Assembly: GCA_963762145.1 (NCBI GenBank) | Contig: CAVXJS010000009.1 | Location: 224,001 to 288,000, forward strand | Direction of reading: 5' to 3' | Length of the DNA stretch: 64,000 nucleotides | DNA from: an uncultured Candidatus Rokubacteria bacterium | GTDB lineage: Bacteria > Methylomirabilota > Methylomirabilia > Rokubacteriales > CSP1-6 | In this document: in pieces, positions 53,048 through 59,816 of the stretch | How the letters are laid out: every line of letters starts with the position of its first letter | Position numbering within the stretch: position 1 is the first letter of the stretch | Notes under the pieces: model-generated | Seen by the model: only the letters and a program-made list of their open reading frames with translations | Told to the model about the DNA's origin: nothing | Databases searched by the model: none | Made by a program: the position numbers and the translations under genes

Positions 53048-56000
53048 GTGGCAGACTCCGGTCCCCGGTTCGCGCTGAAGCGCATCTTCTCCTTCTCGCG
53101 CTCTGCCTCCCCGCGCGCGCTGACCCCCAGCCAGCCCGCCCTCGCCACCGGCGTGATGAGCGATGACGTGCTCGGGAACGCGTCGCGGCGGTCCTGGATC
53201 GCGCGGATGCGCGAGCTGCTGCATCGGCGCTACGTCCTCTTCCCGCTGCTCGCGGTGGTGGTCGCCCTCGCCGCGCTCGTGGAGATGCGCACCTCGACGG
53301 TGCAGGCGCTCGTGCTCTCGCGCGCGGCCGCCTGGCTGACCTACCGGGTGGACCCGGGCCCGAGCAAGGCCGTCCGCTTTCCCAAGACCGGCCCCTACGA
53401 CGAGCGGCTCGGCTACACCCGGCTCGGCAGCTTCGTCGAGCGGCTCGAGGGCGCGGGCTATCGCGTCGAGCGCCAGGCGCGGCTCTCGCCGGGCCTCGAC
53501 CGGCTCGCCGCGTGGGGCGTCGCGCTCCCCTACCGGGAGAAGACGCGGGCGGGTCTCGCGGTGCTCGACCGCGACGAGAAGCCCCTCTACGCCACCCGCT
53601 ATCCCGAAGAGGTCTACGAGCGCTTCGAGGCGGTGCCGACCCTCCTCGTCAACACCGTGCTCTTCATCGAGAACCGCGAGCTCCTCGACGCGGGCCACCC
53701 CTTCCGCAATCCGGTGGTGGACTGGCGGCGGCTCGCCAAGGCGGTCGGGGTCGAGGCGCTCGGGCGCCTGGGCGCCGAGCGCCACTCGATCGGGGCGAGC
53801 ACGCTGCCCACCCAGCTCGAGAAGCTCCGGCACTCGCCGGACGGGCGGACGCGCTCCCCCGCCGACAAGCTGCACCAGATGATCTCGGCGAGCCTGCGCG
53901 CCTACCAGGGTGGCGTGCAGACGCGGGCCGCGCGCCGGCAGATCCTGGTGGACTATCTCGACTCGCTCCCCCTCGCGGCCGCCCCCGGGCACGGCGAGGT
54001 GCACGGCATGGGCGACGGCCTGCGCGTCTGGTACGGCCTCGACTTCGCGGAGGCCAACGCCCTCCTCGAGGCCAAGCCCGGGATCTCCGAGGCCGCGCGG
54101 GCCCACGCCTTCAAGCGCGCGCTCAGCCTGATCCTGGCGGTGCGGAGGCCGTACCACTACCTGGTCGAGAATCCGCGCGGGCTCGAGGAGTTCACCGACA
54201 GCTACCTGCGCGTGATGGCCCGCGCGGGCGTGATCGACGCGAGCCTGCGCGACGCCGCGCTGGCGCAGCGGCTCGAGCCGCGCGCGGGCAACGGGCCTGC
54301 CACGACCGCCTTCGTGGAGCGCAAGGGCGCGAACCTGGTGCGCAGCCGGCTCACCACCCTGCTGAACGTGCCCGGCCTCTACGACCTCGACCGGCTGGAC
54401 CTCACCGCCTACAGCACGCTGGACGCGCCCGGCCAGGGGGCCGCGACGCGGCTCCTGCGGTCTCTGCGCGAGCCCGCGACCATCGAGCGCCTGGGGCTCG
54501 TCGGCGAGAAGCTCCTGGGCGGGGGCGATCCCGCGCGCGTGATCTACAGCGTCACGATCTACGAGCGCGGGCCCCACGCCAACCGGATCCGCATCCAGAC
54601 CGACAACCTCGACCAGCCGCTCGACATCGCGGGGGGTGCGCGGATCGATCTCGGCTCCACCGCCAAGCTCCGCACCCTGATCTCGTATCTCGAGGCGATC
54701 GCGGTGCTCCACGACCGGTACGCTCGGCTCACGCCGGCGGAGCTGGCCGCGGCCCGGCCGCATCCGAAGGACCGCATGGGCGCGTGGGCGATCGAGTACC
54801 TCACCGCCGCGCGCGGCACCGACAAGACGCTCCGGGCAACGCTGGAGGCCTCGCTCGAGCGCAAGTACTCGGCGAGCCCGGGCGAGGCCTTCTTCACCGG
54901 CGGAGGGCTCCACACCTTCGGCAACTTCGACCGCGAGGACGACCGCAAGGTGATGACGATCCGCGAGGCTTTCCAGAACTCGGTCAACCTGGTCTTCATC
55001 CGCCTGATGCGCGACGTGGTCACCAACCACCTCTACGGCTCCGAGACCTCGCTCGCGGTGCGCCTGGCCGATCCCCTCGACCCGCGCCGCGATCGCTACC
55101 TGACCCGGTTCGCGGATCGAGAGGGCAGCGAGTTCGTCCGGCGCTTCTACCGCAAGTACCAGGGCCTGGCCCTCGACGCGCAGCTCGAGCTGGTGCTGAG
55201 CGGCGCGCGCGCCACCCCCAACGGCCTGTCCACCGCGCTGCGCTCGGTCTACCCGGAGGTGAGCCTCGAGATCTTCCGCGAGCTGCTCACCGCGCGGCTG
55301 CCCGGCCGCGGACTGTCCGACAAGATGGTCGCGGAGCTCTACGAGCGGGCGGACCCGCAGACGATGCCGCTCGCCGACCGCGGCTACGTGGCCGGCGTGC
55401 ATCCCCTCGAGCTCTGGCTGGCGGGCTACCTCCGCCGGCATCCGGGCGCGGGCATCACGCAGGTGGTGCGGGCCAGCAGCGCCGAGCGGCAGGCCGTCTA
55501 CGGCTGGCTCTTCTTCACGCGCCACCGCAACGCGCAGGACAACCGCATCGCCAGCCTGCTCGAGATCGAGGCGTTCCTCGACCTGCATCGGAACTGGGAG
55601 CGGATGGGTTATCCGTTCGCGTCCCTCACCCCGTCGCTGGCCACCGCCATCGGCAGCTCCGGCGATCGTCCGGCCGCGCTCGCCGAGCTGATGGGGATCA
55701 TCCTGAACGACGGCGTCCGCCTCCCGACCGTGCTGGTGGACGGCGTGGACTTCGGAGTGGGCACGCCCTACGAGACGCACATGGGGCGCGCGGAGGTCCC
55801 GGCGACGCAGGTCCTCGCGCCCGAGGTGGCCGCGGTGGTGCGGGGGATGCTCACCCAGGTCGTCGACCAGGGCACCGCGCGCGGCCTCCGGCCCGCGCTG
55901 GCGCAGCCCGGCGCCACCCCGCACGTCGCGGGAGGCAAGACCGGCACCGGCGATCACCGCTACTTCATCTACGCCAAGAACGGCGCGGTGGTGGAGTCGC

Positions 56001-56209
56001 GCGTGGTGAGCCGGGCGGCCACCTTCGTCTTCATGCTCGACAACCGCTACTTCGGTACCGTCACCGCCTACGTGCCGGGACCCGAGGCCGCGCGCTTCCA
56101 CTTCACGAGCGCGCTACCCGTGCGGGTCACCGGGCTGCTCGTGCCCGCGCTCAACCGCCTCTCCGCGGCGCCGCCGCCGGCTCCCGTCGCCGCGTCCGCT
56201 TCCCCCTAG
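53048..56209 (+). CDS. large class A penicillin-binding protein (GT51 transglycosylase plus transpeptidase with insertions)
   Basis: TM anchor; FIENREL; GASTLPTQLEK; transpeptidase motifs STAK (SxxK), SVN (SxN) and KTGT. Confidence 0.8.
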   Translation: MADSGPRFALKRIFSFSRSASPRALTPSQPALATGVMSDDVLGNASRRSWIARMRELLHRRYVLFPLLAVVVALAALVEMRTSTVQALVLSRAAAWLTYRVDPGPSKAVRFPKTGPYDERLGYTRLGSFVERLEGAGYRVERQARLSPGLDRLAAWGVALPYREKTRAGLAVLDRDEKPLYATRYPEEVYERFEAVPTLLVNTVLFIENRELLDAGHPFRNPVVDWRRLAKAVGVEALGRLGAERHSIGASTLPTQLEKLRHSPDGRTRSPADKLHQMISASLRAYQGGVQTRAARRQILVDYLDSLPLAAAPGHGEVHGMGDGLRVWYGLDFAEANALLEAKPGISEAARAHAFKRALSLILAVRRPYHYLVENPRGLEEFTDSYLRVMARAGVIDASLRDAALAQRLEPRAGNGPATTAFVERKGANLVRSRLTTLLNVPGLYDLDRLDLTAYSTLDAPGQGAATRLLRSLREPATIERLGLVGEKLLGGGDPARVIYSVTIYERGPHANRIRIQTDNLDQPLDIAGGARIDLGSTAKLRTLISYLEAIAVLHDRYARLTPAELAAARPHPKDRMGAWAIEYLTAARGTDKTLRATLEASLERKYSASPGEAFFTGGGLHTFGNFDREDDRKVMTIREAFQNSVNLVFIRLMRDVVTNHLYGSETSLAVRLADPLDPRRDRYLTRFADREGSEFVRRFYRKYQGLALDAQLELVLSGARATPNGLSTALRSVYPEVSLEIFRELLTARLPGRGLSDKMVAELYERADPQTMPLADRGYVAGVHPLELWLAGYLRRHPGAGITQVVRASSAERQAVYGWLFFTRHRNAQDNRIASLLEIEAFLDLHRNWERMGYPFASLTPSLATAIGSSGDRPAALAELMGIILNDGVRLPTVLVDGVDFGVGTPYETHMGRAEVPATQVLAPEVAAVVRGMLTQVVDQGTARGLRPALAQPGATPHVAGGKTGTGDHRYFIYAKNGAVVESRVVSRAATFVFMLDNRYFGTVTAYVPGPEAARFHFTSALPVRVTGLLVPALNRLSAAPPPAPVAASASP

Positions 56210-56237
56210 CCTCGCGGTCGCGTTTCGTCATACCGTC

Positions 56238-56394
56238 GGGCGGGACGCCGGGGGGCGGGGGCCCTCCCGGGAACACGCTGAGTCGCATTGCCGCGGGGCC
56301 ACTCTCACGAGCCACGAGACAGGACGCGTCTCGCTTCGCTTGCGCGCAGAAGACACGGTTCCCGGGAGGGCCCCCGCCCCCCGACGCCCCGCCC
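56238..56394. repeat. 37-bp inverted repeat with an 83-bp spacer (REP/MITE-like)
   Basis: GGGCGGGACGCCGGGGGGCGGGGGCCCTCCCGGGAAC versus its reverse complement at 56358-56394, with 2 mismatches. Confidence 0.8.
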
Positions 56395-56548
56395 TATGCG
56401 CCATCTACCGACAGCGATCTGTGGTGCGCGCTCCGAGCGCGGGCTTCGCCCGCGCATCCTGTTCCTTGATTCTGCTGTGCTAGGGGGGAGGCAGGGAGGA
56501 GCGCGCCGTCCGGCGCGCGACGACCGTCGGAAGCGACTGTCTTGCCGG

Positions 56549-57481
56549 TCAAGCGGGTTGCCATGGGCGGCGGTCCCGGAGCATGGCGTTGAGGATCGTG
56601 AGCAGCTTGCGCATGGCCGCGATGACGGCGACCTTCTTGGGGCGGCCCGCGGCCGTGAGCCGCCGGTAGACCTCCCGGATCACCGGGTTGTGGTGAATCG
56701 CCACGATGGTGGGCATGTACAGCGCGCGGCGGACGGCGGCCCGGCCCCCGCCGATCATGCGCCGCCCCCGCCAGCGGCCGCTGTCGCGATTCCACGGCGC
56801 CAGGCCGACGAGCGCGGCAATCCGACGCCGATCCAGCTGACCCAGTTCCGGGAGGTCGGCGATCAGCGCGTGCGCGGTGAGGTCGCCAATCCCGGGCGCC
56901 GAGGTCAGCAGATCCTCCGTCTCCCGCCACACGGAGCTCGTGCGAATGAGCCGGGCGATCGCCGCGTCGACCTCCGCGATCGCCCGCGTGAGCCACGTGA
57001 CGTGCGCCCGGATGCGCTGTTGCAGCCCGCGGACCCGCGCTTGGCGATGCCGGTTCTGCTCGGCCCCCAGCATATCGACGAGCTGGCGCCGCCGGGCCAC
57101 GAGTTCCCCCAGCCCCTGCGCCTGCTCCGTGGCCAGCGGCCGCGCCGCCGGCTGCACCAACTCCGCAAAGCGCGCATTGGCCCGCGCATCGAGCCGATCC
57201 GTCTTCGCCAGCTGCCCCGTGGCCAGCGCAAACTGCCGGACCTGCCGGGGATTGACCACCGCCACCGGTAACCCGGCGTGTGCCAGCGCGGCGGCGACGG
57301 CGCTCTCATACCCGCCGGTCGCTTCCAGCACAATCAGCATCGGCCGCAGGTCGACCAGCCGGTGCACCAGCGTGGCCACCCCCGCCTCTTCGTACGCCAC
57401 CGCGAACTCCTCATCCGTGGGGCGTACATGCACGTCCAGCCGATCCTTCGAGACATCCAGCCCCACGAAGATCCGTTCCAT
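56549..57481 (-). CDS. IS110 family DEDD recombinase/transposase (310 aa)
   Basis: FVGLDVSKD; VLEATGGYE; VNPRQV; AKTDRLDA; SAPGIG; GLAP...DSG; GGRA.VR.ALYM; AAMRKLL. Confidence 0.96.
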   Translation of the reverse strand: MERIFVGLDVSKDRLDVHVRPTDEEFAVAYEEAGVATLVHRLVDLRPMLIVLEATGGYESAVAAALAHAGLPVAVVNPRQVRQFALATGQLAKTDRLDARANARFAELVQPAARPLATEQAQGLGELVARRRQLVDMLGAEQNRHRQARVRGLQQRIRAHVTWLTRAIAEVDAAIARLIRTSSVWRETEDLLTSAPGIGDLTAHALIADLPELGQLDRRRIAALVGLAPWNRDSGRWRGRRMIGGGRAAVRRALYMPTIVAIHHNPVIREVYRRLTAAGRPKKVAVIAAMRKLLTILNAMLRDRRPWQPA

Positions 57482-57645
57482 GTCCCGTCCTTGTCGATGC
57501 GGGCTCGCCGAGCGGCCCAAGCGACTGTTCGGGTTCACGGCACGTGAAGCGGCAGGCAGGGCCCCAGGCTTCCGAACGGTCTTGGTAGACCCAGGGGGGC
57601 GCGGGCTCCCGCCCGCCTTCACTCCGGCTACGCTATCCGCCGGAG
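57482..57645 (-). ncRNA. IS110 bridge RNA in the left non-coding end (boundaries approximate)
   Basis: Contains CGCCCCCCT (57601-57593) and TCGGAAG (57575-57569), matching the target site. Also contains ACAGTCGCT (57528-57520) and ACAAG (57494-57490), matching the donor junction. Each pair flanks a stem-loop. Confidence 0.85.
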
Positions 57646-57682
57646 TTCCTAAGATACAAGGGGGGCGCAGCCCCCCTCCGAG

Positions 57683-58522
57683 TCAATACACTTCGTCGCG
57701 CTCGCCGAATTCGAACTGGTAGGTCGTCTCGTCGAGCTCGGTGTTGGTGACGAGCTGCTTGCGGGCGAGGAGGGCTTCGAAGGTCTGGAGCCAGATCTCG
57801 TAGTAGACGAAGGGGGCGGGGCGCGTCTCGGCGGCGGCGATCTGGGCGATGAGCGCCTGGCGGAACTCTTCCCAGTCGTACACGCCGCGCTCGTGCAGGG
57901 CGACGGCCATACCGAAGACGCGACCCTGCCAGGGCTCCTCGAAGACCAGCTCGCCGTTCTTGCGCGGCAGCGCGGCCTGGCCTCCCATGACCGCGACCAC
58001 GCGGTCCACCGTGAGGTCCTGGCCCTGCGCGGTCACCCCCGACGGCAGCGACTCGCAGGCGTGGGCCTGGCGCCCGCGCCAGAGGCGGGCGTCGTCCACC
58101 GGCTGGCCGTCGGGACGCGGCTGCCAGGCGGAGGCGGTGAACTGGTACGGGGCGAGGGCCGACGGCGAAGGCAGGCAGGCGTCGGCGTCCAGCATGGCCT
58201 CGACGTGATCGTAGAGGGCGACCGCAAGCGCGTCCGAGTCGATCGAGTGGAACCACTGAGCCTGGCCGTCGAAGAGCAGGAGCGCCACGTTGGCGAGGGC
58301 GCACGGTCCGAGGCAGCCGCCGATCGTCAGGTGGATGATGTTACGGAGCCGCCGCCGCTCCCACTCGCGGTGGAAGGTCTCGGTCGGGACCGGCGCGAAG
58401 CCGTCCTCGGTGCGGCCGCAGCAGCAACCGGTGGCGCAGATGAAGAGCTGACCCCGGAAGCGCGCCACGTTGACCCGCCGCCCGTCGCGGCGCACCACGA
58501 TGTTACGCCGGCGCTCGTACAC
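57683..58522 (-). CDS. nitrile hydratase accessory protein (P14K/NhhG-like) fused to an N-terminal Cys-rich thioredoxin-like/(2Fe-2S) ferredoxin-like domain
   Basis: N-terminal FICATGCCCG...GGCLGPCALAN; C-terminal LPRKNGELVFEEPWQGRVFGMAVAL..WEEFRQALI..YYEIWL..FEALL. Confidence 0.82.
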   Translation of the reverse strand: MYERRRNIVVRRDGRRVNVARFRGQLFICATGCCCGRTEDGFAPVPTETFHREWERRRLRNIIHLTIGGCLGPCALANVALLLFDGQAQWFHSIDSDALAVALYDHVEAMLDADACLPSPSALAPYQFTASAWQPRPDGQPVDDARLWRGRQAHACESLPSGVTAQGQDLTVDRVVAVMGGQAALPRKNGELVFEEPWQGRVFGMAVALHERGVYDWEEFRQALIAQIAAAETRPAPFVYYEIWLQTFEALLARKQLVTNTELDETTYQFEFGERDEVY

Positions 58523-58536
58523 GGGGCCGGCGCCGC

Positions 58537-59130
58537 TCAGGAGGCGGTCACGCGCGGCTCGGCCACGCCGATGAGCGCGTCGCGGGTGATCAGCGGCACC
58601 AGCTCCGCTTCGCTCATGGCCTCGGTGCCGGCCGGCCTGATCGGCAGGACCATGTAACGCATCTCGGCGCTCGAGTCCCACACGCGGATCTCGCGCTCCG
58701 CCGGCACCTCGAGCCCCATCTCCCGCAGGATCGTCCGCGGCTCGCTGACCGCGCGCGAGCGGTAGGCCGGCATCTTGTACCAGGTGGGGGGCAGCCCCAG
58801 CACCGGCCACGGGTAGCAGGAGCAGAGCGTGCACACCACCAGGTTGTGCACCGCCTCCGTGTTCTCGACCACCATCAGCATCTCGTAATCGAGATCGAGC
58901 TGCCCGAGCGCGGCCCTCGGGTCCTCCAGGAGCAGGCGCCGGTAGTCGGGATCGGTCCACGCCTTCGCCACCGCGCGAGCGCCCGTCATCGGGCCGGTGT
59001 CCGCCTCGTAGCGCTGGATCACCCGATCCACCGCGTCGGGGGCCAGGATGCCCTTCTCGAGCAGCAGCGACTCGAGCGCCCGCACGCGGGACACGATGTA
59101 GGGATCGACGTTGGGGTGGTTCTTGCCCAT
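58537..59130 (-). CDS. nthA: cobalt-type nitrile hydratase alpha subunit
   Basis: [12 protein letters not shown]; [11 protein letters not shown]; [21 protein letters not shown]; [15 protein letters not shown]. The T and Y in CTLCSCY indicate the Co type. Confidence 0.96.
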
Positions 59131-59135
59131 CCGCG

Positions 59136-59816
59136 TTACCTCCCGGGTAGGAGATAGCTCTCCCAGAGATCGATGTGCACGGCCTGGTTCGCCTCCGCCG
59201 ACTCGCCCCACAGCTCGCGCGCGTCGAAGCGCACGCTGTAGAGCGGCTGCGGCTGCTCGCCCTGCCCGTGGGCGTTGGTGTCGGGAAACACGTGGATACC
59301 GTGGCAGCAGTGGATGACGCCGCGCTTGCCGCGCGCGTAGCGCGGCAGCCGCGTGTGGCCGTGCGGGTGCATGTCCCGCGTGAGGACGGCCTCGCCCGGC
59401 GCGAACCGCGGCGTGGCTCCGGTCTCGCGGATGAAATCCGTCATCGAGGCCCGCCGGGAGGCGCCCCGCGACGGCGGCGGCCCGGGCAGCGCCGCGGTAG
59501 CCGGCGCGTCGGGCTTCTGCTCGAAGAACGTCCGCCGCGCGATCAGCTCCTGGGGATCCAGCACGCCCTTCTCGAGGAGGACCCGGGTGATCCCCTCGAG
59601 CCACTTCTCGTAGTAGGTCGCGCGCAGGTAGTGGGCCGGAGCCATGCGCTCGATGCCGTGGCGGAACTCGTCGATGTTGTAGAGCAGGCCCTGGCGGCCT
59701 GCGTGCTGGATGGCCAACACCACCGCCTCCCAGTCGGCGTGGAACGTCGGCTCGTTCTCCTCGCGCTCGACCGGCCCGAAGCCCTGCATGCCCCCCAGAT
59801 CGTGCACCCCGTTCAT
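59136..59816 (-). CDS. nthB: nitrile hydratase beta subunit
   Basis: [16 protein letters not shown]; FHADWE; [10 protein letters not shown]; YYEKW; [12 protein letters not shown]; DLWESYL. Confidence 0.96.

Follow-up and report, generated by a model that had tools for sequence, protein, structure and literature searches.

A DNA stretch of 64,000 nucleotides from an uncultured Candidatus Rokubacteria bacterium (contig CAVXJS010000009.1, positions 224,001 to 288,000; hereafter the window) carries an insertion sequence of the IS110 group on its minus strand at positions 56532–57660. The element is 1129 bp long counting the CT dinucleotide core at each end, or 1127 bp as a mobile unit. On the minus strand, in which sense all sequences are given below, it opens with CT-TGTATCT (from 57660 downward) and closes with ACAGTCG-CT (56540–56532), the left-end core lying at 57659–57660 and the right-end core at 56532–56533, with no duplication of the target beyond the core. 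The host flanks are CGCCCCC, the left target (LT, 57661–57667), and TCCGA, the right target (RT, 56527–56531); the right-end terminus ACAGTCG (56534–56540) is the left donor (LD). Rejoining the flanks gives the target CGCCCCC-CT-TCCGA, and joining the element ends gives the donor ACAGTCG-CT-TGTAT. An earlier note, made from the sequence alone, had proposed this element together with its CT ends, target and donor, and all of them proved exact to the base. No terminal inverted repeats were seen by eye on the minus strand between 56300 and 57900, a region in which no dedicated repeat search was made.

The left end extends for 179 nt, from 57660 to the ATG codon at 57481, and holds all four guide segments of a putative bridge RNA. 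A 5′ stem-loop, CTCCGG...CCGGAG (57622–57645), is predicted from the fold of the single sequence. It is followed by a target-binding module (57551–57617) consisting of a basal stem, an internal loop and an apical hairpin, a structure indicated by both the fold and covariation in the alignment described below. The left target guide CGCCCCCCT (57593–57601) runs in the same sense as LT plus core, and the right target guide TCGGAAG (57569–57575) is the reverse complement of CT-TCCGA; between them stands the apical hairpin GGTCT-ACCA-AGACC (57578–57591), which is found in the fold and as helix 2 of the alignment. The donor-binding module (57484–57533; helices 3–5, again from fold and alignment) carries the left donor guide ACAGTCGCT (57520–57528), identical to the right-end terminus plus core, a second hairpin (57501–57518) and the right donor guide ATCGACAAG (57490–57498). 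In the latter, ACAAG (57490–57494) pairs with CTTGT, and the part beyond ACAAG is assigned by analogy with IS621 of E. coli. When the segments were extracted by coordinate, all four guides matched target and donor without a mismatch, as the earlier note had claimed.

The recombinase gene (56549–57481) starts at this ATG and encodes 310 amino acids. Its product contains the N-terminal RuvC-like domain DEDD_Tnp_IS110 (PF01548; 75.2 bits against a cut-off of 29, E 6.5e-21) and the C-terminal Tnp domain Transposase_20 (PF02371; 64.8 bits against a cut-off of 21.3, E 9.2e-18). Among solved structures only two distinct sequences were matched, both over nearly the full length: the ISCro4 transposase (PDB 9t56; 127.9 bits, E 5.4e-36) and the IS621 transposase (8wt6; 121.5 bits, E 4.6e-34). 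ISCro4, the best solved relative by sequence, has the same domain order, with a chain of 341 residues compared with 310 here. It is, we presume, tied to the IS622 tool. With the numbering corrected for two additional N-terminal residues in the IS621 chain, D9, E53, D95, D98 and S234 align to IS621 D11, E60, D102, D105 and S241, and S234-G235, corresponding to IS621 S241-G242, is invariant in 15 relatives. In IS621 the DEDD residues and the serine make up a composite active site, in which the serine forms the covalent intermediate, according to the accessible text of the structural paper (Hiraizumi 2024, PMC11208158). The compact recombinase of the earlier note is thus borne out in its reading frame, its two domains and its catalytic residues. 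A protein search returned at least 8000 homologues at E 0.001, the best of those scored being 92% identical. Because most of the best 120 homologues are 310 or 312 amino acids long, the assigned ATG start is supported. The few relatives with a named source come from Methylomirabilota/Rokubacteria metagenome bins and by themselves point to a probable host in the Methylomirabilota. No paper joining IS110 with Rokubacteria or Methylomirabilota was found among the matches listed by a literature search.

For the structure of the RNA, 80 orthologous loci with 53–66% protein identity were taken from species-representative genomes of several phyla; CTTGTAT occurs within 330 nt upstream of the gene in 69 of them. 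The left end of the window element was aligned with 26 of the 58 distinct left ends, those most similar by eye, at a mean column identity of 67%. RNAalifold predicts a long basal stem round a first, variable loop and a second module round a conserved loop. Over the 27 left ends, 91.3% of the cells in the structure assigned to them are paired and 13 of the 30 pairs change on both sides; the covariation score is reached by none of 500 shuffles, and registers slid along the alignment are only 34–48% paired. The basal helix of the target module is the best supported part, with compensatory changes in 10 of its 14 pairs and 96.6% of cells paired. The left end folded on its own has a z-score of −2.20, and 4 of 200 shuffles fold equally well. 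Since a single GC-rich sequence is weak evidence, we relied on the alignment rather than on this fold. A covariance model built from the 26 orthologues, leaving the window element out, was used to score 150 of about 10,700 first-look candidates in the genome assembly (25 contigs, 88% complete) and recognized exactly three left ends, those of the three element copies, at 152–155 bits (155.2 for the window copy); a model including the window element found the same three places. This was a check that the earlier note had suggested. The left end fits the published architecture of a bridge RNA, in which a 5′ stem-loop precedes two further stem-loops, each with an internal loop that is variable in the first and conserved in the second (Durrant 2024, PMC11208160, accessible text).

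If the loops are guides, they should follow the flanks from one element to the next. Guide columns were read from the alignment and flanks from the DNA of each locus, and 72 rows reduced to 71 distinct ones, three of which are the copies of this genome. LT agrees with its guide at 4.39 of 7 positions over the 71 rows, compared with 2.57 after permutation (maximum 3.03 in 2000 permutations). RT, readable in 60 rows after 11 had been dropped, agrees at 4.83 of 6 positions, compared with 1.90 after permutation (maximum 2.38 in 2000). Keeping one row per distinct guide pair changes little (LT 4.40 against 2.52 in 53 rows; RT 4.74 against 1.87 in 43 rows). RT positions 1–5 match in 85–98% of the 60 rows compared with 32–40% after permutation, and position 6 is at chance, from which it follows that the right target guide of this clade is 7 nt long including the core, that is, TCGGAAG. 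On the left side, positions 4–7 match in 75–93% of rows, positions 2–3 weakly and position 1 not at all, so a genomic copy that sits in TGCCCCC instead of CGCCCCC (copy C below) fits the pattern.

Closer relatives, both near and intermediate, agree with this picture. Seven soil-metagenome relatives (88–94% amino acid identity) have target guides identical to those of the window copy; their LT matches at all seven positions in five cases, at six in one and at four in one. Their readable flanks represent the same site, with one exception that has one C fewer, and RT is TCCGAA in all five readable flanks, one further contig ending too early and one having lost 9 bp including the core. In that last relative, 94% identical (L086:1501–1640), the 9 bp missing at the right junction comprise the CT core and the first RT bases, and this copy is probably immobilised. 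Relatives at 62–69% identity combine nearly the same RNA stem with other guides, each of which matches its own flanks.

On the donor side the comparison is with IS621. As described in the accessible text of PMC11208158, the right donor guide of IS621 is discontiguous: A157-U158 and C162-G165 pair with dC8-dT14, a G-T pair is formed at 161, and U159-U160 are flipped out. By analogy, ATCGACAAG would pair with all seven donor bases CTTGTAT, the CG in its middle being flipped out. The base after TCGGAAG is C and can pair with donor G7, and the base after ACAAG is G and can pair with target C7; these handshake positions are consistent with the IS621 rule. The two handshake pairs are nearly constant, with one pair type shared by 52 and 43 of 54 guide sets, respectively, which is too little variation for a test of covariation. 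The earlier note had given the IS621 donor as ACAGTAT-CT-TGTAT. This string does not occur as text in the accessible parts of PMC11208160 and PMC11208158; the bases described there (dA6 and dT7, and a right donor paired at dC8-dG11, dT12 and dA13-dT14) agree with it. Among Dehalococcoidia-type relatives (L021, L024, L034, L039, L047, L059, L063 and others), the columns of the left donor guide have AC, AA or AG as their last bases and the right ends close with GCT, which reflects either an extra loop base or a misaligned column.

The genome contains three full-length copies of the element, with 99–100% identity and identical ends, and one short weak match. PF01548 likewise has exactly three matches genome-wide, all without internal stops. 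Copy B (C11:420604–421732) and copy C (C9:796134–797262) share the site of the window copy: in each case a stop codon and then the arm CTCGGAGGGGGGC of the palindrome precede the element, whose left neighbour is CGCCCCC, or TGCCCCC in copy C, and whose right neighbour is TCCGA. About 12 positions vary among the copies; two of these lie in the first hairpin's apical loop, and the guides are free of differences. With three independent copies sharing one site, and with the permutation control, the guide matches are not due to chance. Other copies with the same ends and target were a further point on which the earlier note had staked its reading. In contigs from soil metagenomes, similarity to the element breaks off at 56533 and at 57658–57661, which are the element ends. 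In copy C, two adjacent base changes turn an alanine into a lysine.

What is the site that these copies share? At the window copy, the left part of a hairpin (hairpin 1, 57661–57682) follows the stop codon of the upstream gene (57683–57685) directly, and beyond the right end of the element hairpin 1 is completed, followed by a 34-nt insert, a C-run and hairpin 2 (56431–56531). This composite repeat recurs in the genome with and without the 34-nt insert (long and short form), placed immediately behind stop codons and oriented like the gene upstream; two-hairpin examples, besides the one split by the element, are C21:971350–971435, C14:424921–425001 and C9:127165–127276. It has no T-run and is thus not a classical terminator. 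Hairpin 1, in which the target lies, occurs in two variants, GGGGGGC-TG-CGCCCCCC and GGGGGCC-TCGAC-GGCCCCC. A profile built from three short-form palindromes gave 44 nhmmer matches at E≤10. At E<1e-4 there were 29, of which three are the right halves of occupied sites. Of the strong matches that include the start of hairpin 1, 19 of 24 begin at most about 12 nt after a same-direction open reading frame of at least 100 codons, a count made with no chance control and in a genome of 70% G+C, where long frames are common. The host palindrome of the earlier note is therefore real as a repeated, extragenic and imperfect palindrome, for which the label “like a repetitive extragenic palindrome (REP)” is fair, and it does not belong to the E. 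coli REP family. Its arms are unequal, with CTTCCGA on one and CTCCGA on the other, and because of this imperfection the site has a single orientation and the element always points in the direction of the upstream gene.

The exact empty target does not occur in the assembly, where 6 sites have one mismatch and 100 have up to two. A search for empty sites, also suggested by the earlier note, thus yielded near-matches within uninterrupted palindromes and no exact site: three uninterrupted palindromes read TGCCCCC-CT-TCCGG, with two mismatches (left position 1 and right position 5). One unoccupied, uninterrupted palindrome (C21:121450–121493) is identical to the target except for a GT core; it contains the one-mismatch match at C21:121464.

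The ends also hold the two halves of a putative promoter. A −10-like hexamer, TATCTT, lies in the left end (57651–57656), and a −35-like hexamer, TTGACC, overlaps the stop codon in the right end (56547–56552); only when the ends are joined do they form the promoter-like arrangement TTGACC-17 nt-TATCTT. Among 47 distinct end pairs, TTGACN is found at exactly this distance in the right end of 44, and TATCTN in the left end of 39. This agrees with the published statement that the circular form rebuilds a promoter across the core (Durrant 2024, PMC11208160, accessible text).

Taken together, we consider it very probable that the element is an intact IS110-group insertion sequence of the IS621 type that is directed by a bridge RNA; its anatomy, its copy pattern and the covariation of its RNA are observed. 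The earlier note had read it in the same way, and the domains, the catalytic residues, the RNA structure, the guides that track their flanks and the split promoter all speak for that reading. The cycle can be pictured as follows. The 179-nt left end would encode a bridge RNA of about 165 nt. Its first loop, with CGCCCCCCT and TCGGAAG, would pair with both strands of CGCCCCC-CT-TCCGA, a site in the 3′ arm of the repeated host palindrome, and its second loop, with ACAGTCGCT and AT..ACAAG, with the joined element ends ACAGTCG-CT-TGTAT. After the example of IS621, the element would be excised as a circle, and the joining of its ends would build the TTGACC-17-TATCTT promoter that drives both RNA and recombinase. 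A recombinase tetramer carrying the RNA would then exchange strands at the CT cores, and the circle would be inserted in one orientation, with no duplication, into matching palindromes.

Several points weigh against this interpretation. Transcription, circle formation and catalysis are carried over from IS621 by analogy. LT positions 1–3 track the guide weakly (20–48% compared with 23–28% after permutation). Copies B and C encode alanine (GCC) at the nearly invariant D200 of the motif PGIGD. A promoter scan of the integrated copy gave no sigma-70-like site, which leaves the supply of RNA from integrated copies unexplained; such a silent integrated copy agrees with a 2026 report, whose accessible text describes weak expression of the RNA from integrated IS621. 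Of the words sampled from the stretch, at least half were present in each of twelve public sequencing runs, and the contigs of four of these runs were compared. The circle junction, which the earlier note had proposed as something to look for, was not found as a joint in these contigs, which are poorly suited to show one. Finally, Rfam 15, searched in E-value mode over 56000–58200, has no matching family; since the library seems to hold no bridge-RNA family at all, this result says nothing against the RNA.

The compared runs gave two further observations. Some contig joints skip 1194–1201 bases and carry 17–27 other letters in their place; they represent uninterrupted short-form palindromes, some with the exact target. 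Their shorter matching sides measure only 22–28 letters, and we therefore take them for other loci or organisms rather than for this locus in its empty state. One contig from a library recorded as RNA covers 57352–57613 with 11 differences, for which carry-over of DNA or a related element is a possible source; the cover from RNA libraries consists of a few short contigs with 90–99% likeness and is no demonstration of transcription.

The strongest competing explanation is that the element is a recently dead relic, which has all the anatomy of a bridge-RNA element and whose copies no longer move and are kept by descent. With no exact empty target left in the assembly, current movement would be invisible; the alanine that copies B and C carry at D200 points the same way, and the loss of the right core in relative L086 shows that copies do decay. 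Against this, the three copies in the genome share about 99% of their sequence, have the same ends and keep their reading frames open, and several soil studies include runs whose contigs contain near-identical elements. Moreover, the window copy itself retains all five catalytic residues as well as D200, which is also kept in at least 90% of 15 relatives. We regard a dead relic as improbable, and an intact bridge-RNA element as the better description of the window copy.

The matches between loop and flank might also have arisen in another way. The target loop contains both halves of the site, and the site lies within a palindrome, so that a captured fragment of the host repeat could look alike, the element having entered by DNA homology and not under the guidance of an RNA. 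Yet the two halves flank a conserved hairpin with opposite orientations, inside a stem that is maintained by compensatory changes, and relatives use the same scaffold for unrelated guides that fit their own flanks. The matches are only 7–9 nt, too short for homologous recombination, and the recombinase is a close homologue of two RNA-guided enzymes of solved structure. A captured palindrome is in our view very improbable. Membership in the IS1111 group, whose seekRNA is encoded downstream of the recombinase gene, shares with our reading the same two Pfam domains and deserves almost no credence, given that the structured RNA lies upstream of the gene and that the 16 nt between the stop codon (56549–56551) and the right terminus at 56532 leave no room for a downstream RNA. 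The long right end with a guide RNA by which that group is recognized is absent, the right end being these 16 nt.

How far does the element resemble systems that are already known? With IS621 (PMC11208160 and PMC11208158, accessible text) it shares both domains, the DEDD residues and the serine, the CT core, and a left-end RNA with a 5′ stem-loop and with target- and donor-binding loops. The 9-nt left guide that includes the core, the probably discontiguous right donor guide, the right donor CT-TGTAT, the insertion into a repeated extragenic palindrome and the promoter rebuilt at the junction are likewise common to the two. It differs in being distant in sequence (the 121.5 bits and E 4.6e-34 given above) and in its length of 310 amino acids, compared with 326 for IS621; in its host, a soil bacterium of 70% G+C; and in a right target guide of 7 nt, compared with the 4 nt given for IS621. 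The distinct GC-rich target and the variant donor of the earlier note hold as well: the target is CGCCCCC-CT-TCCGA, and donor positions 6–7 are CG instead of the A and T described for IS621, with the handshake base changed to match.

Repeated palindromes between genes are also the insertion sites of two IS110-family elements of Pseudomonas putida, ISPpu10 and ISPpu9 (10.64898/2026.03.19.712850; PMC12288879; accessible text of both). The specificity of ISPpu10 is described as being increased by a GC-rich stem-loop on the 5′ side of its target (10.64898/2026.03.19.712850, accessible text). The left target here is similarly the 3′ arm of a GC-rich hairpin, a likeness by description. The discovery paper had already predicted thousands of bridge RNAs, including some orthologues with longer right guides (Durrant 2024, PMC11208160, accessible text). 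The present element therefore adds no new mechanism, and it may already be listed in the published tables of predicted orthologues. Its value is practical rather than conceptual: it is a natural element of an uncultured soil lineage that is annotated in full, with guides, ends, split promoter and target family, and its close relatives show one RNA scaffold aimed at different sites. The earlier note proposed it as an orthogonal programmable recombinase. From what can be read in its DNA, it is a reasonable candidate where a small bridge recombinase is sought that is orthogonal to IS621 and ISCro4 or suited to GC-rich targets, and it would make a good test case for whether a target hairpin adds specificity.

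In the integrated copy, the element begins with the T-rich CTTGTATCTT right behind the leftover hairpin GGGGGGCTGCGCCCCC (minus strand, 57651–57676), and this is the only terminator-like site flagged in the region. Hairpin and T-rich left end together could keep transcription of the upstream gene from running on into the element. A wider proposal, which we put forward as speculative and rather doubtful in its entirety, is that the clade represents a compact (310 amino acids) scaffold adapted to high G+C, with a 7-nt right target guide and often retargeted in nature on a nearly unchanged stem; that the GC-rich hairpin at the left target gates the choice of site as for ISPpu10; and that the half palindrome with the T-rich left end shields the silent copy from read-through. 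Were the scaffold, the hairpin gate and the terminator shield all to hold, the element would offer a useful orthogonal tool that brings its own layer of specificity.

Immediately upstream of the element, on the same strand, is a nitrile hydratase cluster (57683–59816). The cluster comprises the beta subunit (59136–59816), the alpha subunit (within 58537–59160) and a third frame (57683–58960), the C-terminal part of which resembles the N-terminal domain of the beta subunit. From the other side, a gene resembling those of penicillin-binding proteins converges on the element on the plus strand (53048–56209).

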